A stretch of 55,684 nt of DNA from Candidatus Segetimicrobium genomatis (GTDB taxonomy: Bacteria > Sysuimicrobiota > Sysuimicrobiia > Sysuimicrobiales > Kaftiobacteriaceae): contig VBAP01000004.1 of the NCBI GenBank assembly GCA_005882335.1, forward strand, positions 1 to 55,684, read 5' to 3'. The notes under the pieces were generated by a model. It was not told the origin of the DNA, made no database searches, and saw only the letters and a list, made by a program, of their open reading frames with translations. Positions 11,400-48,472 of this stretch are shown piece after piece; the first letter of the stretch is position 1; each line of letters opens with the position of its first letter. Position numbers and translations under genes: made by a program.

Positions 11400-11495
11400 G
11401 CCGGTCTACGCCCGCACCGACACTTCCACTCCAGGCGGGGGGTCCCTCTCCGACCGTGGACGGAGGCCGTGGACGCGAGGCCTATAGTGTGACTG

Positions 11496-11559
11496 CGGAG
11501 CCACCAGGCCGCTAGTCCGGGCTTTTCAACCAGGTAAGCTAGGAGCGGCTTTTCGGTCG
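11496..11559 (+). repeat. 64-nt dispersed structured element, copy 1
   Basis: Ungapped match to 25264-25327 and 48386-48449; 43 of 64 positions invariant across the three. Confidence 0.85.
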
Positions 11560-11587
11560 AGGCGACCAGGTTCCGCGTGCGGCGGCG

Positions 11588-12079
11588 TTAGCGATGACCG
11601 ACAGTCTCGGCAGCGCGCTCAGCAGACAGCCAGAGAGGCAGCACGTCGAAATCGTCCTCGTCCGCCGCCGACGCAACAGGTTCCCGCTCCAACGCCTCTG
11701 CGGCCACCAGCGCGGCCGCCGCGTTCTGCTCGCGGGGGATGAGCTCGACGCTGCTCCAGCGATATGCATTCAGCATGGCCTTCGTCTGCAGGTACGGCCC
11801 GATGAGGTCAGCTGGCACCTCCGCGTCGCCCCTGAGTTGCGCGACCATCTTCGGGTGCTCTGTAAGCACACGGATCCGCCGCACGCCTAACCGCTTCGCC
11901 GTCCACACGCCATGGAGCACGGCCCGGTAGGCGACGACGTCCGGTGACGCTGGTCTCAGTGTCCGGCCGACGACTCGCAGCGTCTGTCCATCGCTGTCGC
12001 GAATGACGACGCCCAGCGCTGCACGGCCGTTCCCTAACGCAATGCTGGTATAGATCTCCACTGCCTGCACCGGGATCAA
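11588..12079 (-). CDS. RNase HI-like fold protein with degenerate active site
   Basis: Aligns by eye to type-1 RNase HI (IYTSIA..G.AALGVVI; VAY; TEH; IPREQN.AA); TTG start with GGAGG RBS, overlapping the upstream stop. Confidence 0.8.
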   Translation of the reverse strand: MIPVQAVEIYTSIALGNGRAALGVVIRDSDGQTLRVVGRTLRPASPDVVAYRAVLHGVWTAKRLGVRRIRVLTEHPKMVAQLRGDAEVPADLIGPYLQTKAMLNAYRWSSVELIPREQNAAAALVAAEALEREPVASAADEDDFDVLPLWLSAERAAETVGHR

Positions 12080-12273
12080 GGCACCTCCAGCATCATCACC
12101 AGCAGGAGCAGACCTGCAATCATGAACATCTTTACCCCAATCAGGTCGCGGTCATCGGCGAGTCGCGCCCAGAGGTTCGTTCGCGGCCTCGACCTCTGAG
12201 GCGAAAGCAGCCTGGGCATCACGCGCAGCCTGCTGGCGGGGATTCCTCGGACGGCGACCGCGCGCACGCTCAT
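12076..12273 (-). CDS. Small protein with one C-terminal TM segment, coupled to lexA
   Basis: 65 aa; ATGA overlap with the lexA stop and TTGA overlap with the next gene; hydrophobic LIGVKMFMIAGLLLLVMML. Confidence 0.7.
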   Translation of the reverse strand: MSVRAVAVRGIPASRLRVMPRLLSPQRSRPRTNLWARLADDRDLIGVKMFMIAGLLLLVMMLEVP

Positions 12274-12899
12274 GCCTGTCCTCCCGCGTACCGCCGTAAC
12301 AGCCCCACGACCTTGCCGATGATCTCGAACTCGCCGCGAATCGGAGCGTAGCGGGGGTTCTCCGGCACCAGGTACGGCTGCCGCCCCTCATACGCCAGCC
12401 GTTTGACGGTGGCCTCCTCACCGATCAGCGCCACGACGATCTCATCCGGATCGGCGGCGGGCTGCGAGCGGACGATCACCATGTCGCCATCGTAGATGCC
12501 GGCATGGATCATGCTGTCCCCGCGGACGGTCAGGAGGAAGCAGTTCTCGTCGTGCCAGCCGACCATCTTGCGGGGAACGGGGATCATGTCTTCGACGTTT
12601 TCCTCTGCCAGGATCGGGACGCCGGCGGACACGCGGCCGACCAGCGGCAGATGTGCGACCTGATCACCGCTGGGAAGGATCCGTTTGTCCAGCACCTCCA
12701 GCACGCGCATCCGATCGCCGTCTCGCTTGACATATCCCTTGCGCTCCAATGCCAGCAAGTGCTGGTGGACCGTGGACGGCGACCGCATCCCCAGCGCCTG
12801 ACCGATCTCGCGAACAGACGGGACGATGCCGTTGCGTCGAATAGACGTGGCAATGTGCTCCAAGACCTGCCGCTGCCTGTCTGTCAGTGGCGTAGCCAT
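12270..12899 (-). CDS. lexA: SOS repressor LexA
   Basis: N-terminal wHTH (LTDRQRQVL), cleavage site SAG, GDSM serine and TVK lysine. Confidence 0.97.
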   Translation of the reverse strand: MATPLTDRQRQVLEHIATSIRRNGIVPSVREIGQALGMRSPSTVHQHLLALERKGYVKRDGDRMRVLEVLDKRILPSGDQVAHLPLVGRVSAGVPILAEENVEDMIPVPRKMVGWHDENCFLLTVRGDSMIHAGIYDGDMVIVRSQPAADPDEIVVALIGEEATVKRLAYEGRQPYLVPENPRYAPIRGEFEIIGKVVGLLRRYAGGQA

Positions 12900-12919
12900 C
12901 GCTTTCACCCCCATCAACT

Positions 12920-12948
12920 AATATAGCGAACGTATGTACGAATATCAA
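12920..12948 (-). promoter_or_regulatory. lexA promoter
   Basis: TTGATA (12948-12943), 17 nt, TATATT (12925-12920). Confidence 0.75.
12927..12940. promoter_or_regulatory. LexA box (CGAAC-N4-GTTCG type) in the promoter spacer
   Basis: CGAAC-GTAT-GTACG, one mismatch to the Gram-positive consensus. Confidence 0.8.
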
Positions 12949-12981
12949 TGGGTGGGATAGTAGCCAATTAGCGAAATATAC

Positions 12982-12995
12982 AGAACATTCGTGCG
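12982..12995. promoter_or_regulatory. Second, weaker LexA box
   Basis: AGAAC-ATTC-GTGCG. Confidence 0.55.
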
Positions 12996-13109
12996 TAATT
13001 GTGGTCCGGGCCTGTCGAGCTCGATTTCGCTCGTTCTTGGGCCGGATTTCGCGGCCGCACGCAGAGCAGGCGCGCCTTTGGCGCAATATCCAGCGGGGAA
13101 CACCGTCTT

Positions 13110-13130
13110 CAAAGGGGTCAGACCCCTTTG
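13110..13130. repeat. REP-like perfect palindrome
   Basis: CAAAGGGGTC-A-GACCCCTTTG, downstream of the threonine dehydratase gene; partial echo GGGGTCTG at about 13138. Confidence 0.6.
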
Positions 13131-13174
13131 ATGTTACGGGGTCTGCAGATCCTGCATGAGCGTTGGCCGAGCGG

Positions 13175-14101
13175 TTAGCTCGAAGTGAGGAGCCGGGAAA
13201 TCAGCTGCGGCTCGGCGTTACCACCGCTGACGACTGCCACAGCATGGACACCGGAAGCGCGCATCCCTAAAGCAGCTGCTACCGCCACTGCGCCGGACGG
13301 TTCCACGATGATGTTGCCGTCGGCCAGCAACCGCCGGACGGCGGCCAGGGTCTCTTCGTCGGATACGGCCATGAACTCGTCTACGTACTGGTTCGCGATC
13401 TCCCAGGTGAGCTTGCCCGGCGTCAGTACGCGCAGCCCGTCCGCAATCGTTTCGGCCTGCTTCAGCACCACCGGCTTCCCGGCTGCGCGCGAGCGGGCAA
13501 ACCGAGGGGCGCCGGCGGGTTCGACGCCGACCACGCGGGCGGTCGGCCGCAGCGCTCTGACGGCCGTCGCTACTCCGGAAATCAAGCCGCCACCGCTCAC
13601 CGGGACAAGCACCACCGTGACCTCAGGATGCTGCTCCACAATCTCAAGGCCGGCGGTGCCCTGACCGGCCACGATCAATGGATCGTCGAATGGCGGCACA
13701 TAATGCAACCGGCGCCGTTCCGCCAGCTCCTGCGCATAGGCGACACGTTCCTCTGAATAGCGACCATAGCGGATCAGTTCGGCGCCGAACGCCGTAATCG
13801 CCTGGGCCTTAGCGGACACCACGTCCTCCGGCACCACCACGACGGCCCGCAAACCCAGTGTCTTCGCCACATACGCGACGGCCTTGCCATGATTGCCCGA
13901 CGAGGCCGTCACGACGCCGCCCTGGCACTGCTCGGGCAGGGCGAGCACATGGTTGAAGGCCCCGCGGGCTTTGAACGAGCCGGTCACCTGCAAACTCTCC
14001 AGTTTGAGCAGCGGCCCTCCCGGCAGGGGATGCAACGGCGTGCGGACGACGTAGGGGGCGATTCGCGCGCGGGCGGCGTGGATATCGCGCAGAGAGACCA
14101 C
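13175..14101 (-). CDS. Threonine/serine dehydratase (PLP)
   Basis: LKLESLQVTGSFKARGA, SSGNHG and VPVSGGGLISG; start re-picked at GTG 14101. Confidence 0.9.
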   Translation of the reverse strand: MVSLRDIHAARARIAPYVVRTPLHPLPGGPLLKLESLQVTGSFKARGAFNHVLALPEQCQGGVVTASSGNHGKAVAYVAKTLGLRAVVVVPEDVVSAKAQAITAFGAELIRYGRYSEERVAYAQELAERRRLHYVPPFDDPLIVAGQGTAGLEIVEQHPEVTVVLVPVSGGGLISGVATAVRALRPTARVVGVEPAGAPRFARSRAAGKPVVLKQAETIADGLRVLTPGKLTWEIANQYVDEFMAVSDEETLAAVRRLLADGNIIVEPSGAVAVAAALGMRASGVHAVAVVSGGNAEPQLISRLLTSS

Positions 14102-14102
14102 G

Positions 14103-14195
14103 GAACTAACGGAAACGCGGGATCGCGGGATCGCGGGAACAACTGCTACAAACGCGAATAGGCGCGTTTCCGCGTTTCCCCGTTCCTGCGTTCCC
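14103..14195. repeat. Inverted tandem-repeat cassette, 8-mer GCGGGAAC family
   Basis: Left CGCGGGAT CGCGGGAT CGCGGGAA; right GCGTTTCC GCGTTTCC CCGTTCCT GCGTTCCC; after the gcvPB stop. Confidence 0.88.
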
Positions 14196-14200
14196 AACAG

Positions 14201-15685
14201 TCAGCGTGGTTTCCACCGCAGGTCGGGCTGGCGGGCGGCGCGCACCTCGTCGAGCCGTTTCACCGGCGTGGAGTGCGGGGCGGTCTTGACGACTTCCGGA
14301 TCGTCCTGCGCCTCGCGGGCGATCGCCAGCATGGCATCGGCAAACTCATCGAGCGTGCGCTTACTCTCCGTCTCCGTGGGCTCGATCATGATGGCTTCTT
14401 CCACGATGAGTGGGAAGTAGATGGTGGGCGCGTGGAACCCGTAGTCGAGGATGCGCTTGGCCATGTCGCGCGTCGCCACGCCGTGCTGCCTCTTCTGGCG
14501 GGCCCCCGACAACACGAACTCGTGCTTGCAAAGACGGTCGTATGGGAGATCGAACCGGCTGCGCAGCCGCGCCAGCAGATAGTTGGCATTGAGGACGGCG
14601 GTCTCGGCGACCTGGCGCAGCCCGTCGGCTCCCATGGAGCGGATGTAGGCATAGGCCCGCACCAGGTTGCCGAAGTTGCCGTAGAAGGCGCGGATCTTGC
14701 CGATGGACTGCGGCCGCTGGTCGTCGAGGCGAAAGCGCTCGCCATCGCGTTCGATGACCGGCACCGGGAGAAACGGCGCCAGGTGCGCCTTCACACCCAC
14801 CGCGCCGGCCCCGGGTCCACCGCCGCCGTGGGGAGTAGTAAACGTCTTGTGCAGGTTCATGTGCATGACGTCAAAACCTTGATCGCCCGGGCGGGTCACA
14901 CCCAGAACGGCGTTGAAATTCGCCCCATCCAGGTACAGCTGGCCGCCGGCGCGGTGCACGATCTCCTCGACGTCCAGGATGGGTTCTTCAAACAACCCCA
15001 GCGTATTCGGGTTAGTCAACATGATCGCGGCCACGGAGCCGTCCATGGCCTCGCGCAGGGCGCGGACGTCCATGTTACCCCTGGCGTCGGATTTTACGGT
15101 GACGACCTGATAGCCGACCATGGCGGCGGTGGCGGGATTGGTGCCGTGCGCGGAGTCCGGCACGATGACCTTGGTACGCCGTTCCCCACGCGTTTCGAAG
15201 TACGCGCGGATCATCAGCAGCCCCGTGAGTTCACCGTGAGCACCGGCCGCGGGCTGGAAGGTCACGCGGTCCATTCCGCTGATCTCCGCCAGCAGCTCCT
15301 CCAGTTCGCAGATCAGCCGCAGGGCGCCCTGGGCCCCTTCGGCAGGCGCGTACGGGTGCAGTCGCGCAAAGCCCGCCAGGCGCGCCGCGTCCTCATGAAT
15401 CTTGGGGTTGTACTTCATCGTACAGGAGCCAAGCGGATAAAAGCCTTCGTCAATGCTGAAGTTGCGGTGCGACAGGCGCGTGTAGTGACGCACCACGTCG
15501 AGCTCGCTGACCTCCGGCAGCGCGGCCGGCTCTTTGCGCAGTTGGGAGGCGGGGATCAATTGTTCCAACGGTGTGTCCGGGACGTCGGGGTTAGGATACG
15601 AGGATCCGACCCGCCCCGGGACGCTGAAGTCGAAGATGACCGGGAAGTCGCGAGGCCTGCCCTGAGCGTTGTCGAAGGGCGTCAT
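14201..15685 (-). CDS. gcvPB: Glycine dehydrogenase subunit 2
   Basis: [13 protein letters not shown] and [11 protein letters not shown] site; ATG 15685 overlaps the gcvPA stop (ATGA). Confidence 0.96.
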
Positions 15686-17082: not shown

Positions 17083-17465
17083 GGCGCGGCCTCCCCAATG
17101 GCGACCACATACTGGTCCACGGGCATTAACCGCTCGAGCTCGCGCAGATCATCCGGTTGCACGACGATCATCCAGCCCTTGCCATACGGGTCTGAGTTTA
17201 CCACCTCCGGTGAGTCCACCAGTGCAGGATTCACCTCGACCACAGTCCCGCTGAGGGGCGCGTACAGATCGGATACCGCCTTCACCGACTCGACCACGCC
17301 GAATGGCTGCATGAACGTGACCTTCGCGCCGGCTGCCGGCAGCTCAACGAACACCACGTCGGTCAGGCGGTCGGCCGCGAACCTGGTGATCCCCACGCGC
17401 ACTCGCCCGCCTTCGACGCGCACCCATTCGTGCTCGCTACTGTAGCGTAAGTCTTTAGGATACAT
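17079..17465 (-). CDS. gcvH: Glycine cleavage H protein
   Basis: HEWV and VESVKAVSD lipoyl lysine. Confidence 0.97.
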   Translation of the reverse strand: MYPKDLRYSSEHEWVRVEGGRVRVGITRFAADRLTDVVFVELPAAGAKVTFMQPFGVVESVKAVSDLYAPLSGTVVEVNPALVDSPEVVNSDPYGKGWMIVVQPDDLRELERLMPVDQYVVAIGEAAP

Positions 17466-17477
17466 CCTCGCCCCCAG

Positions 17478-18658: not shown

Positions 18659-18664
18659 GATCGT

Positions 18665-24285: not shown

Positions 24286-25176
24286 CTATCGCTCGGCAAC
24301 AGTCACGCTGAGTTCCTTCGCCGCGCCGCCGCGGAGGAGACGGACGCGCAGCGACGTCCCGATCTTTTCAGATGTCAGCTGCGATGCAATGTCGTCGTGA
24401 GTGCGGACCGGTGTCCCGTCAACTGCGACAATCACGTCCCCCAGCACCAGCCCCCCACGTTCCGCGGGGCTGCCAGATTCCACTGACACCACGATCAACC
24501 CGACTCGCTGCCCCACCTGCTGTTCCAGCGTGGCCGGCAGGCGCACCGGGTGGGCCCCAATGCCCAGATACCCCCGGCGGATTTTCCCGTGGGTCAGCAG
24601 CGCGCCCGCCACCTTGCGCAACGTCGGCACCGGAACCGCTATCGCGGCACGCCGCAGGAGTCCCGCCGTGTTCATTCCCAGAACCGCGCCGCCCGCGTCC
24701 ACCAGGGCACCGCCAGAAAATCCGATTCCCGGCGTCACATCGGTTTCAAGGTATCGGTCGAACTCTCCGCCCGTGGGGGCCCGCCAGGCCTCGCCCGCGG
24801 CGCTGATAATTCCGAGCCGCGCCCGAACCGTGCGGCCGGGCCGCGTCACGGCCACCACCAGCTGGCCGACTTTCGCCTGATCACCGCCGCTCCAGGACGG
24901 CACGGTCAGACCGGATGCCTGTGCACGCAGCACCGCGATATCGGTACCTGGGTCCCGACCGACCAGGGTGGCAGCCACGAGCTGCCCATCAGGTAGGCCG
25001 ACGCGGATCTCGTCCTCTTGCTCAATGACGTGGTCCGCCGTCACGATCGTCCCGTCCGCCGCCCAGACGATTCCGCTGCCGGGGGCATGCCGCCGGGCCT
25101 CGACCCGCACCACAGAGGGCCCGACCCGCTCCGCAATGCCGGCAATTCCGTTGGAGATTTCGCTCAAGATCTGCAT
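24286..25176 (-). CDS. S1C/HtrA-like serine protease with PDZ domain
   Basis: TADHV (His), TDIAVL (Asp), GFSGG (Ser) and a C-terminal PDZ; no signal peptide seen. Confidence 0.9.
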   Translation of the reverse strand: MQILSEISNGIAGIAERVGPSVVRVEARRHAPGSGIVWAADGTIVTADHVIEQEDEIRVGLPDGQLVAATLVGRDPGTDIAVLRAQASGLTVPSWSGGDQAKVGQLVVAVTRPGRTVRARLGIISAAGEAWRAPTGGEFDRYLETDVTPGIGFSGGALVDAGGAVLGMNTAGLLRRAAIAVPVPTLRKVAGALLTHGKIRRGYLGIGAHPVRLPATLEQQVGQRVGLIVVSVESGSPAERGGLVLGDVIVAVDGTPVRTHDDIASQLTSEKIGTSLRVRLLRGGAAKELSVTVAER

Positions 25177-25263
25177 CACATCTACCACCTCCGTTGATGG
25201 TGAGCATACGCTGGCCGGCGCGTCGCCCGCATCGCCCGTTTGGGTAGGCCGTAGACGTAACTC

Positions 25264-25327
25264 CGGAGCCACAGGGCCGCAATTCCAGGCTTTGGAACCA
25301 GCGCAGCCAGGAGCGGTTTTTTGGTCG
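25264..25327 (+). repeat. 64-nt dispersed structured element, copy 2
   Basis: Ungapped match to copies 1 and 3. Confidence 0.85.
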
Positions 25328-25357: not shown

Positions 25358-25972
25358 CTACAGGACGATCAGCCCCAGACGCGCCGCACGCGTGACCGCC
25401 TCCGTGCGGCCGTGCGCGCCCAGCTTGCTGAAGATGACCGCGACGTGGAACTTCACCGTGTGCTCGCTGATGCCCAACTGCAGCGCAATCCGCTTGTTAG
25501 GCAGGCCTTCGGCCAGTAACTGCAAAACCTGCAGTTCGCGCGGGGTCAGTTCCTCTGCGGGAACCTCCGGCGCCGCGCCGCGCCCTTGTACCATCGCCGG
25601 AGCGAACGCGGGGTCGATCGCCACCAGCCCCAGAACCACCGCCCGCAACGCCGCCAGGAGTGCCGGTCCACCGATATCTCGGGGGAGAGCACCTCGCGCA
25701 CCGGCGGTCATCGCATCGGAGACACGGGCCTCATCGTCGCTCAACACCACCACCGGTATGTCAAGATCCTGCATCGCCGGGAGGCGCGCGTCGCTCTGAG
25801 CGGCCCCCGTTCCAAGATCCCACAGGATGATGTCGCGAGTGTGGGCATCAGCGACGTCGCCAAGATCAACCTCCGGCGCGGCCTGGTCTACCGTCACGTC
25901 CGGCTCGCCGGACAAGGACGCCACGAGCTTTGCCCGCGCAAGCACATCATCGGCGATGACCAAAATACGCAT
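25358..25972 (-). CDS. NarL/LuxR-family response regulator
   Basis: Receiver domain (ADD, LWDL) plus LTPRELQVLQLLAEGLPNK...SEHTVKFHV HTH. Confidence 0.92.
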   Translation of the reverse strand: MRILVIADDVLARAKLVASLSGEPDVTVDQAAPEVDLGDVADAHTRDIILWDLGTGAAQSDARLPAMQDLDIPVVVLSDDEARVSDAMTAGARGALPRDIGGPALLAALRAVVLGLVAIDPAFAPAMVQGRGAAPEVPAEELTPRELQVLQLLAEGLPNKRIALQLGISEHTVKFHVAVIFSKLGAHGRTEAVTRAARLGLIVL

Positions 25973-33746: not shown

Positions 33747-34103
33747 CTAGAAACCTTCGCCAGCGCCGCGGACGACCCCCGCCTGCATTAGGAGGTCGCG
33801 CACAGCCTCGCGCAGCGCGGTGAACCGCGCATCGGCTGCCGGGAGGCGAGGCACCAGCACAACGTCGAACCCACCGGCCACTCGATCCTGCTCCAAACGA
33901 ATCGCTTCACGCACACGGCGGCGTACCCGGTTACGCCGCACGGCGCCGCCCGCGCTCCGTCTCACGGAGATGCCGAAGCGCGTCACCGGCAGCCCGTTGG
34001 GCCGCGCGTACAACACGGCCACATCACCGGTCAAGCGCCGGCCCTCACGATATGCCAGGCGGAACGCCGCAGCAGAGCTCAGGGGACGTACCTGCGCCGG
34101 CAA
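33747..34103 (-). CDS. rnpA: Ribonuclease P protein component
   Basis: RFGISV...[13 protein letters not shown] (RNR motif). Confidence 0.92.
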
Positions 34104-34124
34104 AATCGCCGCAGCCGGCGCCGC

Positions 34125-34262
34125 CTACACCGTCAGCCGCCAGCGCCCCTTGGCCCTGCGCCGGCGAAGAACGTTGCGGCCGCCAGTCGTGCGGATCCGC
34201 TGCAAGAACCCGTGAGTCTTCTTCCTTCGGTGCGCCTTCGGTTGGTAAGTGCGTTTCGGCAC
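34125..34262 (-). CDS. rpmH: 50S ribosomal protein L34
   Basis: Not in the ORF track. My translation from GTG 34262 is [45 protein letters not shown]. Confidence 0.95.
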
Positions 34263-34295
34263 GTGCCCTCACCCGCGGTCGGAGGAACAGACTCC

Positions 34296-34304
34296 ACTAT
34301 AACA
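34296..34304 (-). promoter_or_regulatory. Extended -10 promoter for the rpmH operon
   Basis: TGTTATAGT on the minus strand, about 34 nt upstream of rpmH. Confidence 0.6.
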
Positions 34305-34339
34305 TAGCCGGAAAAACCGACCCAGCGCGAGCGGAGGGG

Positions 34340-34619
34340 TGTGGATAACCTGGGCACAACCAGGCCCCGTATCCACAGATTCTCCAGAAAGTAACGGCGC
34401 TGTGACGAGCGCACACTCCCAAAACCGCGGGTAGCCCGCGTGGCGGCGCTGAGCCGCCAGCCCTCCGTTCAGACTATCCACAGCATTTTTCATTGCTGTG
34501 GATAACTCCGCGGAGGCGCGCGGATGGCGGATACCATCGCAGCGCCGCGCACCTGTGTTCGGCAGGAAGCATCTCCCGGCTCCACGAACATCGGGTCACT
34601 TCCCCAGGGGCTATCCACA
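34340..34619. other. oriC part 1: upstream DnaA-box cluster
   Basis: TTATCCACA on minus at 34340-34348 and 34497-34505; GTATCCACA 34369-34377; CTATCCACA 34474-34482 and 34611-34619. Confidence 0.88.
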
Positions 34620-34796
34620 GTCGTGGTCACCGTTCGCTCGCTCACGGACTATCGTGAAATGTGCCTCTGCGCGTTTGCCGGGGTAGGACTTTGCGACCCG
34701 GCGGCAAACTTCGGTGACCATCTCACACGTTCAGACGGCGTATGTCTGCGCACCGTCGCCCTGCGGCAGCACCAATTGACCTGACGGAGGGCGGCA

Positions 34797-35564
34797 ATGG
34801 CCGAGTTCTTGCGATCTATCCAGGGCAGCGACGGACCGGCGGACGCCGCCGAGCCAGAAGTCCGGCTCGCCGTGTATGACTCGCCGCTGGCCGCGCCCAG
34901 GGTGGTGTCGCTACGCGGGCGCGAATTCCATGAGTTCGTGGGCGACCTTGCGGCACGCACATACAACTTCGGGCGAGAACGCGGCGGCCGCATCCCGTAC
35001 ATCGTCATCCGGGAGATCATCGAGAACCTGATCCACGCATACTTCCAGGGCGCCGTGATCAGCATCTTGGACGACGGGAACACGATCCGCATCTCTGACC
35101 AGGGACCAGGCGTTCCGGACAAGGAGAAGGCGCTGCAACCCGGGTTCACGACCGCCACGCCCCAGATGCGCCGTCTCATCAAAGGCGTGGGTTCGGGCCT
35201 GCCCGTGGCCAGGGAGCAGCTGGCATTCCTCGGCGGCGCGATCGCCATTGACGACAACCTCACCCGCGGCACTGTCGTCACGCTGACCGTCGGCGCCGAG
35301 AGTCCAAAGGTGTCCCCTCAAGTGCTGGAGCACCCGAGCCGGCCCGAACCCACACCCCGACAAAAGAAGGTCCTCCTGCTCATCGCCGAGCTGGGATCTG
35401 CCGGACCATCGGCGATCGCGAAAGAACTCGCCGTCAGCCAGAGCACGGCCTACCGCGAACTCCATCTCCTGGCGCGCTGGCGGCTCGTGGACAGCAAGGG
35501 TGGTGGAAAGCGCACGCTCACGGAAGAAGGCATCGCGGTCCTGGGCGAGGTCTTTAAACCGTAA
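34797..35564 (+). CDS. GHKL/HATPase-fold ATP-binding protein with C-terminal winged helix
   Basis: N-box REIIEN, G1 DQGPG, GFTT, GVGSGL; w[12 protein letters not shown]...[18 protein letters not shown]; GGAGG RBS; ends 38 nt before dnaA. Confidence 0.88.
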
Positions 35565-35602
35565 CCCATGACCACCAGCACTCATCCCGGGGGGCAACAA
35601 TC

Positions 35603-36899
35603 ATGGCCGTCGACACGTCATCTGCGGTCGGCATCTGGCAGGAAGCGCTCCGCCGCATCGAGAGCCGGCTGAGCAAGCCGACATACGAGTTGTACCTCAA
35701 GAACATGACGCCACTGGCGGTGCGCGGGGACACCTTTGTGTTTTCCGTGCCCAGCCGCCACGCCAAAGAGTGGATCGAGTCGCGACACGCCAGCCTGATA
35801 CACAGCGCGTTGCAGGAAGTGCTGGCGCGCGCCATCACGATTCAACTGACCGTGGTGGAAGACAGCCCGGCCGCACCGGCCCCGGCGGCGCCCGTGCGCG
35901 GACCGGACGGACTCCCGCTGAGCCCCAAGTACACGTTCGATACGTTTGTCATCGGTACGGGCAACCGCTTTGCGCACGCGGCCGCGATGGCCGTGGCGGA
36001 AGCGCCGGCCCGCGCCTACAACCCCTTGTTCATCTACGGCGGCGTGGGTCTCGGCAAGACCCACCTCCTGCAAGCCATCGGGCACCACGTCGTTCACCGT
36101 CAGCAGTTACACCGCGTTGCCTACATCAGCAGTGAGAAGTTTACGAACGAACTGATCAACGCCATCCGGGACGACCGGACGCTGGAGTTCCGCACCAAGT
36201 ACCGGAGCGTCGACGTCCTGCTCATCGATGACATCCAGTTTCTGGCCGGGAAAGAACGGACGCAGGAGGAGTTCTTCCACACCTTCAACACGTTGCACGA
36301 AGCCAGCCGGCAGATCATCAGAGGACCGCCTGCGCTCCCGTTTCGAGTGGGGCCTCATCGCCGACATCCAGCCGCCGGATCTGGAGACGCGCATCGCCAT
36401 TCTGCGCAAGAAAGCCGAACTCGACGGCTTGAGCGTCCCAGACGAAGTTGCGGAATTCATCGCCCAACGCATCCAATCCAACATCCGCGAACTCGAGGGT
36501 GCGCTCGTCCGCGTCGTCGCCTATGCCGGCCTGACCCGCGCCCCCATGACGGTGGAGCTCGCCGCGGAGATCCTCAAAGAATTGCTCCCGGCCTCCGCCA
36601 GCCGACCCGTTACGATCCAGATGATTCAGAAAGCCGCGGCCGAACACTTCGGACTGCGCGTAGAGGAAATGCGGGCAAAGCGTCGCACGAAAGGGATCGC
36701 CTTCCCCAGACAGGTGGCCATGTACCTGGCCCGCGAACTGACAGACGCCTCACTCCCGCGGATCGGCGAGGAGTTCGGCGGCCGCGACCACACGACTGTG
36801 ATGCATGCCTGTGACCGCGTAAAAGAAGCGCTTACGAAGGATACGTATCTCGCCGCGGGCCTGAAGAAACTCGTAGACACTTTACACAACTCCGGGTGA
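35603..36899 (+). CDS. dnaA: Replication initiator DnaA; as given, frameshifted by a deletion at 36320/36321
   Basis: Domains I-III ([19 protein letters not shown]) to ...RQII, then in another frame EDRLRSRF...[11 protein letters not shown]; the conserved [13 protein letters not shown] segment is absent. Confidence 0.95.
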
Positions 36900-37055
36900 T
36901 ATCCGCGCTCGTTGGGGATAGTGTGGATGCGCCCGCGTATCTATCCCCGGGCTATACACACCCCTTTCCCCTTGGTATTGTTAGCGTGCATCGAGTTATC
37001 CACACTATCCACAGCAGTATTACTACTACGTGTAGTTTTATAACTATTAATTCCG
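36880..37055. other. oriC part 2: DnaA boxes, DnaA-trios and AT-rich unwinding element
   Basis: Adjacent TTATCCACA (36996-37004) and CTATCCACA (37005-37013), then GTA TTA CTA CTA (37017-37028), then TAGTTTTATAACTATTAATT. Weaker boxes at 36880, 36913, 36922, 36941 and 36952. Confidence 0.88.
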
Positions 37056-37065
37056 GAGGAAAGCA

Positions 37066-38175
37066 ATGTGGGTAAGTTGTCCACAGACGGCGTTGCTAAA
37101 GGCAGTACAGATTGTAGGACGAGCGGTTTCGACGCGCACGACGATGCCCATTTTAGGCTACATCCTAATGGAGACCCAAAAAGACGGTATCAAACTGACG
37201 GCGACCGATCTGGAACTCGCGATGCAAGTCGAGGTGGCGGCTGAGGTGAAACAAGGCGGTCAGCTGACGTTGCCGGCGCGGATTCTGAACGAGATTGTAG
37301 GTAACTTGCCCGTGGCAACGGTCGAGATTAAGGCGCCGGAAGGAAGTACGCAGGCGGAAATCAGTTGTGAGACGAGCCACTTCGAGATCCTGGGTTTGCC
37401 CGCGACTGATTTTCCCGCCTTGCCGCGTGCGGATGGAGACGCCGTAGGCGAAGTCGATGCCGATGTCGTGCGCATGATGATCAACCAGACCATTTTTGCC
37501 GTTTCCGCGGACGAAACGCGGCCGTTCCTAACCGGAGTATACGCGGTGCTAGATGGTGCGGAGGCCAAGTTCGTCGCAACGGACGGCGGCCGCCTGGCAT
37601 TACGAAAAGTGCAGCTCCCGCGGGCCGCGCGGCAGAAGATCGGGGTGATCGTGCCGGCCAAGGCGATGCAGGAGCTGGCGCGCGCGCTGGCGGGCGTGGA
37701 GGGTGCGGTGCAGCTGGGGATGGCCGACAACCAGTTGGTTTTTACCGTGCCGGGTCTGCGCGTGTACTCCCGGTTGATCAGCGGACAGTTTCCGAACTAC
37801 CAGCAGGTCATCCCGCAGGAGTTTAAGCAACGTATTCGCGTCCAGACCGAGCGCCTGCTGCGCGCCGTACGCCGCGCCTCAATCACGGCGCGGGACTCGG
37901 CGAATGTCGTGCGGCTGCGGGGTGAGGGCAAGAAGCTGACGCTGACGTCGAATACGCCGGAGGTCGGCAAAGCGCGTGAGGAAGTAGAGGTTACCGCCGA
38001 GGGAGAGCCAATCGAGGCGGCGTTCAATGCGCGGTATCTGATGGACTGCCTCAACAACATCGAGGCAGATGAACTGTTCTTCGAACTCACCGGGCCGCTC
38101 AGCCCCGGGGCGATCCGCCCGGCCCACCACAGCGATTACGTCTACGTTCTGGCTCCGGTGAGAGTGTACGCATAA
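37066..38175 (+). CDS. dnaN: DNA polymerase III beta clamp
   Basis: ATDLE, ATDGGRLA, GQFPNYQQVIP and AFNARYL; GGAGG RBS. Confidence 0.97.
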   Translation: MWVSCPQTALLKAVQIVGRAVSTRTTMPILGYILMETQKDGIKLTATDLELAMQVEVAAEVKQGGQLTLPARILNEIVGNLPVATVEIKAPEGSTQAEISCETSHFEILGLPATDFPALPRADGDAVGEVDADVVRMMINQTIFAVSADETRPFLTGVYAVLDGAEAKFVATDGGRLALRKVQLPRAARQKIGVIVPAKAMQELARALAGVEGAVQLGMADNQLVFTVPGLRVYSRLISGQFPNYQQVIPQEFKQRIRVQTERLLRAVRRASITARDSANVVRLRGEGKKLTLTSNTPEVGKAREEVEVTAEGEPIEAAFNARYLMDCLNNIEADELFFELTGPLSPGAIRPAHHSDYVYVLAPVRVYA

Positions 38176-38194
38176 AGGCCAGAGCGTCTATTCC

Positions 38195-38313
38195 GGGTTT
38201 TCCATGTCTACAGGGTCTACCGGGTCCCAGAACGTGGCGCGTCCAGCGGGCCGCGCGAACAGGGGTTAGGTAGACCCGGAAGACATGGTAGACCAGGGAG
38301 ACCCGGAAGACCG
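38195..38313. repeat. Inverted tandem-repeat cassette, 9-mer GTCT family
   Basis: Left ATGTCTACA GGGTCTACC GGGTCCCAG; right GGTAGACCC GGAAGACAT GGTAGACCA GGGAGACCC GGAAGACCG. Confidence 0.88.
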
Positions 38314-40515: not shown

Positions 40516-40537
40516 GGCTGGGCGCGGGTTTCGTGCG

Positions 40538-40567: not shown

Positions 40568-40682
40568 GACTTGTGCTGCTTTTTGGCACCCTTACACGCG
40601 CTAGGCCAGCAACGTCTGTTTCGCAAGCGCCTGCAGGGTCCAAAAAAGTCTACGATTCGGGGAGGGGCACCGGCTGCGGTAG

Positions 40683-42650
<1,968 letters not shown>

Positions 42651-42651
42651 A

Positions 42652-42726
42652 GCGGGAACGCGGGAACGCGGGACAATACTCAGCCAGGCATTTGCTGTTT
42701 CGCGTTCCCGCGTTCCCGCGTTCCCG
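42652..42726. repeat. Inverted tandem-repeat cassette, 8-mer GCGGGAAC family
   Basis: Left GCGGGAAC GCGGGAAC GCGGGAC; right (CGCGTTCC)x3; between gyrB and gyrA. Confidence 0.92.
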
Positions 42727-42746
42727 TCCTTCTTGAGGTGACGTAG

Positions 42747-45194
42747 ATGGCATTGGCCGACGAATCTCGCATCGTTCCCAAGCCCATCGAGGAGGAGATG
42801 AAGACCTCCTACCTCGATTACGCCATGTCCGTCATCGTCAGCCGGGCGCTGCCGGACGTCCGCGACGGGCTGAAACCCGTACAGCGCCGCATCCTGTTCG
42901 GGATGCTGGAAGCAGGGTTGCGACCCGACCGCCCGTACCGCAAATCCGCGGCCGTGGTGGGCGACGTGATGAAAAAGTACCATCCTCACGGCGACGTCCC
43001 GATCTATGAATCGCTGGTGCGGATGGCCCAGCCCTGGTCGTTCCGATACCCGCTGGTCGACGGCCAAGGGAACTTTGGCTCGATCGACGGGGACCCGCCG
43101 GCGGCCATGCGATATTCGGAGTGCCGCCTCACGCCGCTGGCGATGGAACTGCTGGCCGACATCGACCGGGACACCGTCGATTTCATCCCCAACTACGACG
43201 AGTACGAGAAGGAGCCGGTGGTGCTGCCGGCCAAGGTCCCGGACCTGCTCATGAACGGCGCCTCCGGCATCGCCGTCGGTATGGCCAGCAACATTCCGCC
43301 CCACAACCTGGGCGAGCTGGTGGATGGCCTCGTGGCGATGATCGACGATGCGGACACCAGCGACGAGGCGCTGATGAAGATCATTAAGGGCCCGGATTTC
43401 CCCACCGGCGGGATCATTATTGGCCGCGACGGGATCAAGGCCGCATACACGACCGGACGGGGCAGCATCACGCTGCGGGCCAAGGCCGACATCGAAGAAT
43501 TAAAGGGCGGCCGCACGGCGATCATCGTCACGGAAATTCCGTACATGGTGAACAAGTCGGCGATGATCGCCCGGATTGCCGAGCTGGTGCGCAACAAGAA
43601 GCTGGCCGGAGTCTCTGACCTGCGCGACGAATCCGACCGCAGCGGGATGCGGATCGTCATGGAATTGCGCCGCGACGCCAACCCCCAGATCGTCCGAAAC
43701 CAGCTGTTCAAGCACACGCAGATGCAGACGACGTTCGGCGCCAACATGCTGGCGTTGGTGGGGGGCGTGCCGCGCACGTTGAAACTGCGTGAGATGCTGG
43801 ACCACTACCTGAAGCATCGCCGCACGGTGGTCATCCGCCGCACCAAGTTCGAGTTGTCCCGCGCCGAGGAGCGGGCGCATATCCTGCAGGGTCTGAAAGT
43901 GGCCTTGAAACACCTGGATGAGGTCATCGCCCTGATCCGCAAATCCAAGGACGTGCCGGTCGCGCGCGAGGGGTTGATGAAGCGGTTCAAGCTCAGCGAG
44001 CGGCAGGCGGATGCGATTCTAGAGATGCGATTGCAGCGCCTGACCGCGCTGGAGCGCGAGAAGATTGAGGAAGAGTACAAACTGTTGGTCAAGGACATCG
44101 CCCGGTATAAGGAGATGCTGCGCGACGCCACATCGGCTCGGCCGAAGCTGATCATGGCGGCGGTGCGCGCGGAACTGCTGGAGATGAAAGAGAAGTATGG
44201 CGACGCGCGGCGCACCCGGATCACGAGCAGGGAAGCCGAGGAGTTTGAGGCTGAGGACCTCATCCCTGACGTGGACGTGGTGATCAGCATGACCCACAAT
44301 AACTACATCAAGCGCCAACCCCTGGAAACCTACAGGTTGCAGCGGCGTGGGACGCGCGGGGTCATCGGGGTGGCCACGAAAGAAGAGGACTTCGTGGAGC
44401 AGGTGCTCACCACGACCAACCATGCCTTCCTGCTGTTTTTCTCCGACCGCGGGAAGGTGTACCGGATGAAGGCGCACGAGGTCCCGGAGGCGGGCCGCAC
44501 CGCCCGCGGCACGGCGATGGTGAACCTGCTGGCGCTGGCCCAAGGCGAGCGCATCAACGCCATGATCGGTCTGCGCTCATTCGAAGATGCGGGTAGTGTC
44601 TTCATGGTGACCCAGCGCGGTATCGTCAAGCGCACCGGCCTGATGGAATTCATCAACGCCAAGCGCGCCGGCATCTTTGCCATCACGCTGGAGCGCGCGG
44701 ACAGCCTCGTCGGCGTCAAATTGATTTCGAAAGAGACGCAGATCGTACTGGCCACGCAGCAGGGCAAAGCGGTTCGCTTCAAGGCCGGGCAGGTTCGCGA
44801 GATGGGCCGCGGCGCCCGTGGCGTGCGGGGGATCCGGCTCCGAACCGGTGACGCGGTGGTAGGCGTGGCCGATGCCAAGGAGGGACGGAGCCTGCTCACG
44901 GTGACGGAGCTGGGTCTGGGCAAGCGTACCCCAATGGGACAGTATCCCATCAAGAGCCGCGGCGGCATGGGCGTGATCAACGTGAAGATTACCAAGAAGT
45001 CGGGAGCGGTCGTCAGCGTGCGTGCTGTGGACGACGATGATGAGATCCTGCTCGGGACCACCGGCGGGGTATTCAATCGCATTCCGGTGGCGCAGATTTC
45101 GGTGATGAGCCGCCACGCGCAGGGCGTGCGGGTGATGAAGCTGGGTGAGGGAGAGAAAGTGGCCGCGGTGGCGCACATTCCTGCCAAGGAGTAA
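42747..45194 (+). CDS. gyrA: DNA gyrase subunit A
   Basis: [20 protein letters not shown] catalytic tyrosine, GyrA-box-like QRRGTRG and a beta-pinwheel. Confidence 0.98.
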
Positions 45195-45197
45195 CCG

Positions 45198-45277
45198 CCG
45201 GGAACGCGGGAAAGGACGAATGCGGGAGCACGACGGCATGCGAAGTCGCGAATCACGAATCACGAATCACGGTTCAC
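45198..45277 (+). repeat. Partial 8-mer arm plus unpaired heptamer array
   Basis: CCGGGAAC GCGGGAAA after the gyrA stop; (GAATCAC)x3 GGTTCAC at 45250-45277; no inverted partner seen. Confidence 0.65.
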
Positions 45278-45945
45278 GCCCCTGGCGGCACCTTCTCACC
45301 GCGTTGGGCGTGATCGGCGCCACCGTGGCGCTCCATGAGGGGGCGCATGCCCTCGTCACCGCGCGCGCAGGCGGGAAGGTGAGGGAGATCGGCATCGGCT
45401 TTGGCCCTCCTCTGTTCCGCCTCCGGGTGCGCCATCTGTCGGTCGTGGTGCGGATGCTGCCGCTAGGCGGGTACGCCGCGGTGGATCCAGAGCAGATCCC
45501 GCCACGCCGCAGGATCCCCATGCTGTTGGCCGGCCCCTTGGCCAATATCGCTGCCGGACTGCCGCTGATGCTGGCGTTCCGACGCCATCCTGTGGAGATC
45601 CCTAACGACGGCAGGCGCGTCGGCCTCACCGGGTTCGCGGGTACCCTGACGGCCCTGATCCGGGCCGCGGCGCAGGGTCCCGGGTCCATTGCCCGGCTGG
45701 CCGGTTCCATGAACGTCGGCCTGGGCCTCGCGAATCTGCTCCCGGTCTACCCGCTGGACGGCGGCCACGTAGTGATGAGTATCATGGAAGAGCGCGGTGT
45801 TCCGCGCCAGACCCGCATCAGATTCGCCCGCTGGACCGCCGCCTTGTTCATCATGCTGGCGCGGGCGGCGATGCTCGGCGACCTGCGCCGGCTTTCAGCC
45901 GGCGCGGGAACGGGGGAACGCGGGAACGCGGAATCGCGATTCTAG
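45238..45945 (+). CDS. Small site-2 protease (M50) without PDZ or CBS
   Basis: HEGAH, GFGP...LPLGGY and NLLPVYPLDGGH; start uncertain. Confidence 0.85.
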   Translation: MRSRESRITNHGSRPWRHLLTALGVIGATVALHEGAHALVTARAGGKVREIGIGFGPPLFRLRVRHLSVVVRMLPLGGYAAVDPEQIPPRRRIPMLLAGPLANIAAGLPLMLAFRRHPVEIPNDGRRVGLTGFAGTLTALIRAAAQGPGSIARLAGSMNVGLGLANLLPVYPLDGGHVVMSIMEERGVPRQTRIRFARWTAALFIMLARAAMLGDLRRLSAGAGTGERGNAESRF

Positions 45946-45994
45946 ATGCGGTTGTTTCCGCGTTCCCCCGTTCCCGTGTTCCCGTAGGTTTCCG
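45904..45994. repeat. Inverted tandem-repeat cassette, 8-mer GCGGGAAC family
   Basis: Left GCGGGAAC GGGGGAAC GCGGGAAC GCGGAATC, inside the CDS; right TGTTTCCG CGTTCCCC CGTTCCCG TGTTCCCG. Confidence 0.88.
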
Positions 45995-45995
45995 A

Positions 45996-46865
45996 ATGTC
46001 CGTCATCGTCCGCACCGCCACGCCCGGCAGCGCCCAACTCCCCCGCATCATCGGCGGGCGTGCCGCCGGTCCGGAAGAGTGGGAGCAATGGAGCGAGGAA
46101 CCCGGGCATGACCTGGTCGCCCAGGATGACAGTCGTGTGGTGGGCGGTATTCACGTCAGCCTGGTCAGCCGCAGCGAAGCGTGGCTTGAAAATCTCCGTG
46201 TGCATCCCGATGTGTGGGGCCGCGGCATTGCCGTGCAACTGGTGAAAGAGGGCGAAGCGGTGGCCCGGCGTTACGGGGCCGCAGTGGCACGCACCGCCAT
46301 CCCCGCGCACGAGTACGCGGCTCAGGCGGTGGCTGAGCGTGCGGGGTACAAGCCGTCGCTCCGGTGCGTGGTGGTCGAGGCTCCCCTGCCATCCGGTCCT
46401 GCGCACGTGCCGTACGATGCGCCGGTACATGCGCTCGGGCCGGATCGGGCGTCCGACCTGATGCGGTTTTTGGAATCCACGCCGGCGCTGGCCGCATGGC
46501 ACCGTCTGGTGCCGCTGGGGTGGCGGTTCCGCCGCATCGCGTTGGACCTGGTCCGCGGCCTGCTCAAGGATCACCGCGCGCTGGCGGCGCTGCATCCGGG
46601 CGCGCAGGCCGGCGTCGTGCAGGCAGCCGCCCTGTTTACGGTGCGTGGAGACGCCGTCGTGCTCGCGGTCCTGGACGGGAGTCCGCCCGGAATGCAGGCG
46701 GTGTTCGGCACGGTGACCGAAGACGTGCGGGCTGCTGAGGCCACACGCGCCGCGATTTTTGCCCCGGAGTTGCGCTCGCTCGAGACGCTAGACGTGCGCG
46801 GATGGACGCCTCATCCGTGGTGCCCGGAAGGGCTCGTGGTCGTCGAGAAAAGCCTCGCCTCCTGA
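45996..46865 (+). CDS. GNAT-family acetyltransferase
   Basis: AWLENLRVHPDVWGRGIA acetyl-CoA motif. Confidence 0.85.
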   Translation: MSVIVRTATPGSAQLPRIIGGRAAGPEEWEQWSEEPGHDLVAQDDSRVVGGIHVSLVSRSEAWLENLRVHPDVWGRGIAVQLVKEGEAVARRYGAAVARTAIPAHEYAAQAVAERAGYKPSLRCVVVEAPLPSGPAHVPYDAPVHALGPDRASDLMRFLESTPALAAWHRLVPLGWRFRRIALDLVRGLLKDHRALAALHPGAQAGVVQAAALFTVRGDAVVLAVLDGSPPGMQAVFGTVTEDVRAAEATRAAIFAPELRSLETLDVRGWTPHPWCPEGLVVVEKSLAS

Positions 46866-47026
46866 CCGCGTCGGTACGGCCCGCGAACCGCGTACCGCTC
46901 GCTTTGCTCGGGTACGTGGCGCCTGCGCGTCTGACAGGAGGCGCCCGCCACTGCGCCGAAGTCATCGCTGCGACCTTTTACTGCAATCGCATATGCTGGT
47001 CTGATTTCCCAGGGGGTGGTATAGGC

Positions 47027-48376
47027 ATGAGCAAAGGTGCGACGAAGGCGCCGGTCTCCCAGATCGTTGTCGGCGTGGTCATTGCCGCGCTGGTCGCCGG
47101 CGTAGCCGGATACTGGGCCGGCACGCAGCGCGGTGGTGGGATGGCGAAGGCGGAAGAGCGCAAGCTGGAAATCTTCCACTGGTGGACAGCCGGCGGTGAG
47201 CGCGAGGCTGCCGACGCCATGTTCCAGGCGTTGAAGGCAAAATACCCGGACATCCAGCTCGTGGAGAACCCCGTCGCCGGTGGGGGCGGCGTCAGCCACC
47301 GTGTCGTCCTGCAGGCGCGGCTGTCGGCCAACCTCCCGCCTGACACCTGGCAGACGCTCGGCGGCGCGGAGTTGAAATCATACGTGGACGGCGGATACCT
47401 GGTGCCGCTGGATAGTCTCTACACAGAGATCAAGTATTCCGACGCGATCCCGAAGCCATTGGCGAACGCGGTGACCATCGGCGGCCATCCGTACGTGGTC
47501 CCGCTGAACATGCACATTCAAAACATCCTGTACTACAACAAGAAACTGTTCGACGAACTTGGCTTGAAGCCGCCCACGACCTTCGACGAGTTGCTGGCGG
47601 CTGCCAAGGCGATCAAGGCAGCGCGCCCGAAGATGTCGCCGCTGGGGCTGGGCACGAAGGAGAAGTGGGAAGCCGCCTTCGTACTGGATAGCCTGCTGCT
47701 GGAGCTCGGTGGACCCGAGTACTATGTGAAGCTGTACAAGGGAGAAGTGGACGTCGCCACGGACCCAATCTTCAAGGCGGCACTGGACAGGCTGAATACG
47801 TTGAGGCCATTCATCTATCAGTTCCACGCGGGGCTCACGTGGGATGAGTCCTGCGGCCTTGTGGTCTCCGGCGACTCGGCGATGGTCATCATGGGCACGT
47901 GGGCCATCGGCTACTTCAAGAGCCGAGGATGGAACCCCGGGGTGGATTTCGGCGCGGTCACGTTCCCGCAGAAGCCGGATCGCATTTTGCTGTTCCACCC
48001 AGATACGTATGGCCTGGCCAAGGGCGCACCGCACCCCAAGGCCACGCTGGACTGGCTGAAGGTGGTGGCGTCGCCCGACCTCCAGGTGCCTACCGACGTC
48101 ACGCAGGGTGGACTGTTCGCCAGGATCGACATCGACCCCGGGCAGTTCCCGGACCCGATTCGCCAGGAGCTGCAGAACTACGTGCGCAGCAACCCCGGCA
48201 AGTTGATCCTGGATCAGCATGGAAGCATCGCCCCGTTCAGCTTCACGCAGGCCTACTGGGACGTCGCGGCGGCCTTCACCGCCAAACCCGACGTCGCCGG
48301 TACGGTGAAGGGTGTGAATGGCCTGTTCACGACATACAAGGTGCAGGAGGGCGCGGCGTGGTATCAGTGGCCTTAG
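47027..48376 (+). CDS. Sugar ABC transporter substrate-binding protein, glucose-binding-like
   Basis: Hydrophobic N-anchor; LEIFHWWTAGGE, NPVAGGGG, PPDTWQ and MGTWA. Confidence 0.9.
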   Translation: MSKGATKAPVSQIVVGVVIAALVAGVAGYWAGTQRGGGMAKAEERKLEIFHWWTAGGEREAADAMFQALKAKYPDIQLVENPVAGGGGVSHRVVLQARLSANLPPDTWQTLGGAELKSYVDGGYLVPLDSLYTEIKYSDAIPKPLANAVTIGGHPYVVPLNMHIQNILYYNKKLFDELGLKPPTTFDELLAAAKAIKAARPKMSPLGLGTKEKWEAAFVLDSLLLELGGPEYYVKLYKGEVDVATDPIFKAALDRLNTLRPFIYQFHAGLTWDESCGLVVSGDSAMVIMGTWAIGYFKSRGWNPGVDFGAVTFPQKPDRILLFHPDTYGLAKGAPHPKATLDWLKVVASPDLQVPTDVTQGGLFARIDIDPGQFPDPIRQELQNYVRSNPGKLILDQHGSIAPFSFTQAYWDVAAAFTAKPDVAGTVKGVNGLFTTYKVQEGAAWYQWP

Positions 48377-48385
48377 GCAAAACTT

Positions 48386-48449
48386 CGGAGCCACTCAGCC
48401 GTTAGTCCAAGTATTGCAACCCAGGTAGCTAGGAGCGGTTGTTTGGTCG
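48386..48449 (+). repeat. 64-nt dispersed structured element, copy 3
   Basis: Ungapped match to copies 1 and 2; starts 9 nt after the binding-protein stop. Confidence 0.85.
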
Positions 48450-48472
48450 TCGCACCCAGGGATGTGTATCAG

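Follow-up and report, generated by a model that had tools for sequence, protein, structure and literature searches.

What kind of element is repeated between the genes of contig VBAP01000004.1? This contig, from the assembly GCA_005882335.1 of Candidatus Segetimicrobium genomatis, was analysed over a stretch of 55,684 nucleotides (hereafter, the window), in which a first-pass annotation had pointed out a 64-nt structured element. According to that annotation the element occurs in three ungapped plus-strand copies and could represent a small RNA, a ribozyme or a mobile element. Direct alignment bore out the three copies, which we call c1, c2 and c3:

11496 to 11559, plus strand: copy c1, 64-nt core, 86.2 bits with a covariance model of the family.
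25264 to 25327, plus strand: copy c2, 64-nt core, 80.4 bits.
48386 to 48449, plus strand: copy c3, 64-nt core, 83.3 bits.

Our preferred answer, to which we assign a probability of about 0.6, is that these three sequences are copies of a non-autonomous, non-coding mobile repeat of about 88–90 nt.

A recount agreed that 43 of the 64 positions are invariant among c1, c2 and c3, and the word ACTN stands directly 5′ of the core in each of them. When the conserved positions were turned into a degenerate pattern, the three copies were its only matches in the window (G+C content 65%), and 100 dinucleotide-preserving shuffles of the window gave 0 matches. The first-pass annotation had been unable to name a family, and neither could we: an Rfam 15 search of the whole window at gathering thresholds returned 0 matches, and a search around c1 at a permissive E-value returned a single chance match, snoZ248, at 13.7 bits as compared to a gathering score of 120. 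The ribozyme option is thus unsupported, there being no Rfam match for it at the gathering threshold or by E-value. ARAGORN detected no tRNA or tmRNA genes in the window, inspection by eye for a small open reading frame (ORF) within or after the element revealed no common start codon or reading frame, and literature word searches with the element's 9-mer retrieved primers only.

To see how far the family extends, an exact-pattern scan was run on one genome per species (185,579 species). It returned 99 stretches, six of which were true homologs, all in two metagenome-assembled genomes (MAGs) titled 'Bacillati bacterium ANGP1' (isolates NP_1 and NP_4; three pattern matches each). A stricter pattern, applied to JGI metagenomes, gave 27 stretches from grassland-type soil samples, 25 of them true. 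Removal of duplicates left at least nine distinct loci, all in ANGP1-type soil MAGs or contigs, and identical copies with identical flanks recurred in many independent assemblies and samples. The loci are as follows:

Locus A (copy c1): between the start of a TPR gene and the end of an RNase H-like gene, antisense to both.
Locus B (copy c2): between the start of an HtrA-like protease gene (25176) and the end of a LuxR regulator gene, antisense to both.
Locus C (copy c3): after a sugar-binding-protein gene and before a permease gene, sense.
Locus D: 3′ of a B3_4-domain gene, sense to this upstream gene; the downstream DUF4386 gene is convergent.
Locus E: between the prephenate dehydrogenase gene and trpE, sense.
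Locus F: between tRNA-Thr and tuf, inside the tuf leader, antisense; the 5′ end lies 15 nt from the tuf ATG.
Locus G: between the PHO4 and thioredoxin genes, antisense.
Locus H: ~390 nt downstream of a same-strand CAAX-protease (Rce1-like) gene, antisense to a convergent downstream gene.
Locus I: between an IscA-like gene and a NifU-like gene, sense.

The covariance model, built on 14 family sequences, scored the true copies at 80–91 bits and everything else at up to about 20 bits in ~550 kb of related DNA. The family is thus a discrete one, with no halo of decayed copies in this DNA. Two kinds of further candidates were discarded: pattern matches in viral contigs, considered as a sign of phage origin, scored 12–13 bits and amounted to coding-sequence noise, and a 20.6-bit model match in contig L141 falls inside rplE. 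The family is best filed as an undescribed small dispersed bacterial repeat, confined to an uncultured soil lineage.

The mobile-element option finds its support in reciprocal filled and empty sites, in truncated and recombinant copies, in an orientation independent of the genes and in a constant, target-like 5′ flank. Window positions 4243–11435 have a syntenic counterpart in contig L122, at 82–90% nucleotide identity. At locus G, in the spacer on the thioredoxin promoter side, L122 contains a full copy directly after the common ...GGGATTATAC, while the window continues there as an unrelated spacer with no copy. Reciprocally, the c1 site is represented in L122 by an 82-nt spacer with no element. 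The empty counterpart of locus G in the window is:

9640 to 9760, no strand assigned: empty site of locus G, thioredoxin promoter-side spacer, from the comparison with L122.

More distant relatives, collected for the c1 and c2 sites through GcvT homologs (73–77% identity), were also empty. The element was absent from the LuxR–HtrA spacers of L136, L137 and L139 (47–89 nt), corresponding to the c2 site, and from the RNase H–TPR spacers of L138 and L139 (45–117 nt), corresponding to the c1 site.

The c3 site, whose relatives were collected through binding-protein homologs (80–87% identity), turned out to be particularly varied. In L130, only the first 24 nt of the element are kept, fused to a terminator hairpin; L132 has a diverged version (CGCAGCCGC ... 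GCCGC/GCGGC stem ... TAGGAGC); L127 and L134 have no element. Between the window and contig L103 of NP_4, the binding-protein gene is 97.5% identical, the element only 82%. At positions 3590–3650, L103 carries a different full copy, followed by 19 unrelated nt and then by the last 34 nt of a second copy, which match the 3′ part of c3 without a difference. Such an arrangement indicates either replacement of one copy by another or a tandem insertion followed by a deletion. The same site was apparently reused. As for tuf, the DNA and RNA contigs of an abundant relative have 25 nt of the leader and the start of tuf in common with the filled locus, with other letters replacing the element; judging from these contigs, the picture is consistent with an absence of the element at tuf in this relative, although the junction is not clean. 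The EF-Tu relatives examined represented either the same locus or the fusA–tuf paralog. Gain, loss, truncation and replacement between close relatives are, taken together, the behavior of a mobile repeat.

The sequence just 5′ of the element offers a clue as to where it goes. A TA dinucleotide, mostly as TAG, lies 8–10 nt before CGGAG at 9 of 9 loci, a pattern whose probability by chance is ~2e-12 (TA frequency, 0.017). Just before the TA motif, seven loci have GGCC, GGGC or AGGC, the usual form being GGCC-n-TAG. The TAG word stands ~20 nt before the foot of the hairpin described below; the longer GTAG occurs at only two of the nine loci. In locus C, GGCC-TTAG constitutes the last codons of the binding-protein gene (stop codon, 48374–48376), and the motif is ancestral, as the element-less relatives L127 and L134 also read TGGCCGTAG. 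The motif of locus G is likewise ancestral, as TATAC is present in the empty site of the window, where on the other strand it forms the TATAAT box of thioredoxin. Since the TA motif predates insertion at both loci, we take it, on this comparative evidence, for a preferred target rather than for a promoter that the element brings along. Such a preference would explain why the copies hug stop codons and –10 boxes. Alternatively, the family may have been founded at locus C, taking the last bases of that gene along.

The length of 64 nt given in the first-pass annotation holds for the core of the plus-strand element; when paralogs at different loci are compared, the full conserved unit is longer, consisting of a ~9-nt leader (RnGTRACTn), the 64-nt core and a ~15-nt tail (AGGCRnCCAGGT). 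The parts that flank the cores in the window are:

11479 to 11495, plus strand: 5′ side of c1, composed of the target-like flank GGCC-TATAG (11479–11487) and an 8-nt leader, TGTGACTG (11488–11495).
11560 to 11574, plus strand: 3′ tail of c1, AGGCGACCAGGTTCC, common to most paralogs; it can form a small hairpin, GGTCG-AGG-CGACC.
25247 to 25263, plus strand: 5′ side of c2, composed of GGCC-GTAG (25247–25254) and the leader ACGTAACTC (25255–25263).
48369 to 48385, plus strand: 5′ side of c3, composed of GGCC-TTAG and the leader GCAAAACTT.

Just 3′ of the c1 tail, GCGTGCGG marks the junction with sequence common to the empty site of L122. The core of c1 begins with an invariant 5′ tail, CGGAGCCAC, and continues with the hairpin (pairs 12–17/50–55, 21–23/47–49 and 25–28/42–45), a U-rich stretch and GGTCG. 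Of the ~90 nt of the unit, the hairpin takes up 45 nt, its loop is conserved as UUnCAAC, and two GGAGC words occur in the element, 45 nt apart. Inspection of the two ends of the unit disclosed no terminal inverted repeats. The architecture is an asymmetric one (tail, hairpin, tail), in which the main hairpin is accompanied by one weak and variable 3′ hairpin. An outer stem, CGGAGCC/GGUUCCG, was also considered; it closes c1, L079 and L063 and is missing in the other paralogs, so it was dropped.

RNAalifold, run on the 14 family members, recovered the pairs that had been claimed for the element (12–17/50–55, 21–23/47–49 and 25–27/43–45), with alignment columns offset by one gap column relative to the original numbering. 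The quoted pair types were also correct: G-U, G-C and A-U for 25:45; G-C, G-U and G-U for 13:54; and C-G, C-G and U-G for 17:50. The minimum free energy (MFE) RNA structures of the plus strands of c1, c2 and c3, computed on single sequences, converge on one shared hairpin, while their minus strands adopt different and weaker folds. The stability of the fold is in itself unexceptional, with z-scores of –0.3 to –1.6 relative to shuffles for the three copies. Across the 14 sequences, 95.7% of the pair cells are standard pairs on the plus strand, where we counted 26 G-U cells vs 4 C-A cells; the minus strand would therefore lose about a tenth of the pairs, in agreement with the strand-specific G-U pairing that had been proposed. 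Covariation is weak, as three pairs change on both sides and 16–22 of 500 column shuffles reach the observed scores. Finally, in these 14 sequences from nine loci, 33 of 67 alignment columns are invariant.

How would such a repeat move? Presumably, it is mobilized in trans. About half of the probability that we give to mobility would go to a single-strand route, served by an enzyme of the IS200/IS605 or RAYT type. An HUH/Y1-type enzyme (IS200/IS605 TnpA or RAYT-like) would recognize the single strand through the hairpin and the invariant CGGAGCCAC tail, and would insert it 3′ of a short target word, making no target duplication. Copies would end up at gene ends because, in a genome with 65% G+C, TA words are presumably for the most part stop codons and –10 boxes. 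Resident copies would probably also be read as RNA hairpins within neighboring transcripts, for example after the binding-protein gene.

The closest parallels to this scheme are found in IS200/IS605 elements and PATEs. As in those elements, terminal inverted repeats are lacking by inspection, and a target duplication is not apparent as far as the approximate 3′ junctions allow it to be judged. The hairpin is likewise strand-specific and tolerates G-T/G-U pairs, and insertion is 3′ of a short target word, which is found at a constant spacing in the left flank of all nine loci; target reuse, moreover, would explain the tandem or nested copy of L103. In IS608, TTAC stands 19 nt before the left hairpin, a spacing similar to the ~20 nt between TA(G) and the hairpin foot here. 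However, our element has one clear hairpin rather than a matching pair at the left and right ends, a cognate IS or TnpA was not seen at the loci compared, the three copies show no replication-strand bias, and the hairpin folds more stably in RNA than in DNA, so that the element is at most a candidate member.

The element also resembles the REP/REPIN/BIME sequences, which are mobilized by RAYT (TnpA-REP), being small and extragenic, with a hairpin and a conserved single-stranded head, and lying at gene ends in either orientation; it is lineage-specific, persists at orthologous sites and has a possible role as an mRNA 3′ hairpin. Yet its unit is 2–3 times longer than a REP (about 20–40 nt). The few copies seen are solitary in ~550 kb of related DNA instead of forming inverted doublets, the (G)TAG word is flank-like and does not adjoin the stem, being ~20 nt away from the foot of the hairpin, and no RAYT was identified. 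With miniature inverted-repeat transposable elements (MITEs) of the terminal inverted repeat type, such as Correia/NEMIS, ERIC, RUP and BOX, the family has in common a size of ~100 nt, a non-coding and intergenic nature and polymorphism for presence or absence, as well as the capacity to carry promoter-like or RNA-processing features and to affect neighboring genes. It differs from them in having neither terminal inverted repeats nor a visible duplication of TA or other sequence, and in its asymmetric succession of tail, hairpin and tail.

Several observations weigh against a mobile repeat, or at least against the single-strand route. The absence of a target duplication, although none was visible at the locus G and locus C junctions, is itself provisional, since the spacers around the empty sites are too diverged for the 3′ ends to be placed exactly. 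In the gene lists of the relative loci compared, no Y1 transposase or RAYT partner was seen, so the mobilizing enzyme is pure conjecture on our part. The loci found are few, at least nine across the clade and three pattern matches in each of the two MAGs. With respect to dnaA/oriC, c1 and c2 lie to the left and c3 to the right, all three on the plus strand; there is thus no lagging-strand bias of the IS200/IS605 kind, albeit with n = 3 only. Furthermore, folding with DNA energy parameters yields the shared hairpin as the MFE structure for c1 only, whereas folding with RNA parameters yields it for all three copies, and because of this the predictions lean toward RNA, rather than single-stranded DNA, as the folded form.

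A last objection comes from the way the copies change over time. We defined paralog-invariant columns from one representative per locus and then located the substitutions between positional orthologs. Only 2 of 16 substitutions fell in these columns, vs 54% expected (binomial p = 0.0008). The c3/L063 pair, possibly consisting of replaced copies, contributed 11 of the 16 changes; when it was left out, the figure was 0 of 5 (p ~ 0.02). Because ortholog substitutions avoid the paralog-invariant columns, there is a hint, at the level of sequence, that resident copies are under constraint after insertion, as an RNA useful to the host would be. If the element is a mobile repeat, the reading of resident copies as RNA hairpins could account for this selection.

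The same observations are what one would expect if the copies were sibling small RNA (sRNA) genes, a possibility that we rate as doubtful though deserving of serious attention. Each copy would be its own unit, with a –10-like TAnnn box ~7 nt before the invariant 5′ seed CGGAGCCAC, a hairpin and, at the 3′ end, a stretch rich in U; mRNAs or an RNA-binding protein would be the trans targets of these RNAs, and new copies would arise by duplication. One hairpin being the RNA MFE of every copy, the G-U pairs confined to the plus strand, the poorer folding under DNA parameters, the 33 invariant columns out of 67, the avoidance of conserved columns by ortholog substitutions (p = 0.0008) and the TA-rich box at a fixed distance upstream all fit this idea. 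Families such as Qrr1–5, LhrC1–5 and PrrF1/2 are likewise made of short paralogs with an invariant single-stranded segment, a hairpin and strand-specific conservation.

However, consensus scans detected no sigma-70-type promoter or canonical terminator at any copy, and no conserved –35 was visible among the copies. The –10-like TA box is ambiguous as to strand, and at two loci it was already there as flank, being a stop codon in one and the thioredoxin –10 box on the other strand in the other, and at tuf the supposed promoter would fall within the start codon and coding sequence. In many copies the U-run after the hairpin is poor (CUGUUCGG). A GC-rich hairpin followed by a T-run does occur past c3 (48472–48520, plus strand), but outside the repeat, and it is kept where the element is truncated (L130) or diverged (L132); it is probably a real terminator or attenuator after the binding-protein gene. 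We also considered a promoter on the minus strand, which fits the thioredoxin, HtrA and TPR loci and fails at tuf and at four further loci, where it would be antisense into the upstream gene.

Regarding function, the complementary word GTGGCTCCG, which trans targets would contain, shows no excess in the window, where it has 17 matches at up to one mismatch vs 32 expected. Nor is there any RNA evidence for an sRNA: three metatranscriptomes from the same study, in which the organism is below usable depth and thus not covered, contained no element words and spurious pieces only. Finally, in contrast to the sibling families mentioned above, the present element has no detected promoter, terminator or transcript, its copies abut stop or start codons (one lying antisense inside the tuf leader), and its loci are gained and lost between close relatives, in which copies may be truncated, replaced or absent.

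The two ideas can be merged, and we deem the result unlikely, a little more so than the sRNA genes just discussed: a mobile small-RNA gene, in the form of a ~90-nt cassette that lands by TA-rich words (–10 boxes and stop codons) and is transcribed from CGGAG. If this were true, the copies would be sibling RNAs under purifying selection, with the invariant 9-nt seed CGGAGCCAC and two GGAGC words; they might, for example, regulate in trans or be decoys to an RNA-binding protein, and the whole would represent a transposable element with a functional sRNA cargo.

The remaining alternatives have to be judged by the genes around the copies. As the first-pass annotation had it, all three copies of the window are intergenic and on the plus strand, with c1 and c2 antisense to their neighbors and c3 sense. 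A long ORF spans c2, but it is an over-extension; since the HtrA-like gene actually starts at 25176, c2 is intergenic. The flanking genes in the window are:

10872 to 11399, minus strand: TPR-repeat gene, divergent from c1, with its start codon 97 nt from the 5′ end of c1.
11588 to 12079, minus strand: RNase H-like (RVT_3) gene, convergent with c1.
24286 to 25176, minus strand: HtrA-like serine protease gene (Trypsin_2 + PDZ), divergent from c2, with its start 88 nt from the 5′ end of c2.
25358 to 25972, minus strand: LuxR-type response regulator gene, convergent with c2.
46802 to 48376, plus strand: glucose/mannose-type ABC substrate-binding protein gene; c3 starts 10 nt past its stop codon.

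Throughout the family, all loci are intergenic, copies occur in either orientation relative to the genes, with three loci counted as sense and six as antisense, and the flanking genes have no common functional theme. A cis leader is therefore ruled out and a common regulon is unlikely; the earlier argument against a cis riboswitch, based on copies in both orientations relative to their neighbors, was sound.

These data also bear on a different proposal, namely that the element is a cis-acting module of the host that owes its spread to recombination rather than transposition. One form of it would be a hairpin at mRNA ends or between cistrons, which would stabilize or attenuate the upstream mRNA; another would be a DNA site for a nucleoid or regulatory protein, readable on either strand. 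In line with such a module, the element lies in the sense orientation 9–20 nt past a stop codon at four loci (c3, L002, L100 and L117), other copies are found just upstream of the promoters of stress-type genes (HtrA, thioredoxin), and the recombinant L103 copy shows exchange between copies. We nevertheless consider it improbable, even more than a mobile small-RNA gene. The orientation is inconsistent, and at six loci the hairpin strand would not be in the mRNA of the neighbors, while the minus strand lacks a U-run and has C-A mismatches in its hairpin. A 64-nt asymmetric sequence would be atypical for an operator, the –10-like box at tuf would overlap the start codon, and no functional theme links the flanking genes. 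Lastly, chance similarity or an assembly/binning artefact is scarcely credible, as nothing but the origin of the sequence from a MAG speaks for it, against the 0 matches in shuffles and the finding of the same copies and flanks in many independent assemblies.

Some further features were noted near the copies. Between the start of the TPR gene and c1, the window (11420–11470) and L079 have a conserved hairpin, GGGGGGTCCCTCTCCG...CGGAGG, at whose position L122 and L139 have another hairpin. Upstream of the HtrA-like gene, the motif CCCGTTTGGGTAGG (window 25233–25249) is kept in all relatives, including the repeat-less L136, L137 and L139, and probably belongs to this gene as its promoter or operator. 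Upstream of tuf, in L107 (2040–2095), an inverted repeat, GTGAACCG-n7-CGGTTCAC, stands directly before a TATACT box and could be an operator overlapping the tuf promoter. Between thioredoxin and an M50/CBS protease gene, L122 (5258–6900) and L138 carry a PhoU–PHO4 phosphate-transporter pair that is missing from the window (9680–9690).

On a larger scale, within positions 34000–38200 of the window the coding strand turns from mostly minus to mostly plus at ~34–35 kb, near dnaA (35603–36814) and dnaN (37066–38175); relatives have rpmH-rnpA-yidC-jag-gidB-parAB on one side and dnaA-dnaN-recF-gyrBA on the other. Taken together, the strand switch, dnaA/dnaN and the gene order of the relatives imply that the window spans the replication origin. 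In one relative (L130, 4585–8352), gyrA encodes a protein of 1255 aa, with an intein that includes a LAGLIDADG homing endonuclease domain; the gyrA of the window (42747–45194) has no intein.

The element fails the tests for Rfam families, classical REPs and MITEs with terminal inverted repeats, and it adds to the ANGP1-type candidate lineage, which has no cultured member, an undescribed family of small dispersed repeats. In annotation, its copies are to be masked as repeats, not called RNA genes, and they do not constitute a new class of RNA genes. The family is tractable, because its copies are few and because filled, empty, truncated and recombinant sites are already present in public metagenomes. 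The strand-specific hairpin, the invariant single-stranded head and the target word at a fixed distance point to a single-strand, hairpin-guided mobilization; if the partner enzyme were found, the family would provide a compact model for target choice beside stop codons and –10 boxes. In addition, since the resident copies show a hint of purifying selection, the family may be an instance of a mobile element that its host has put to use.

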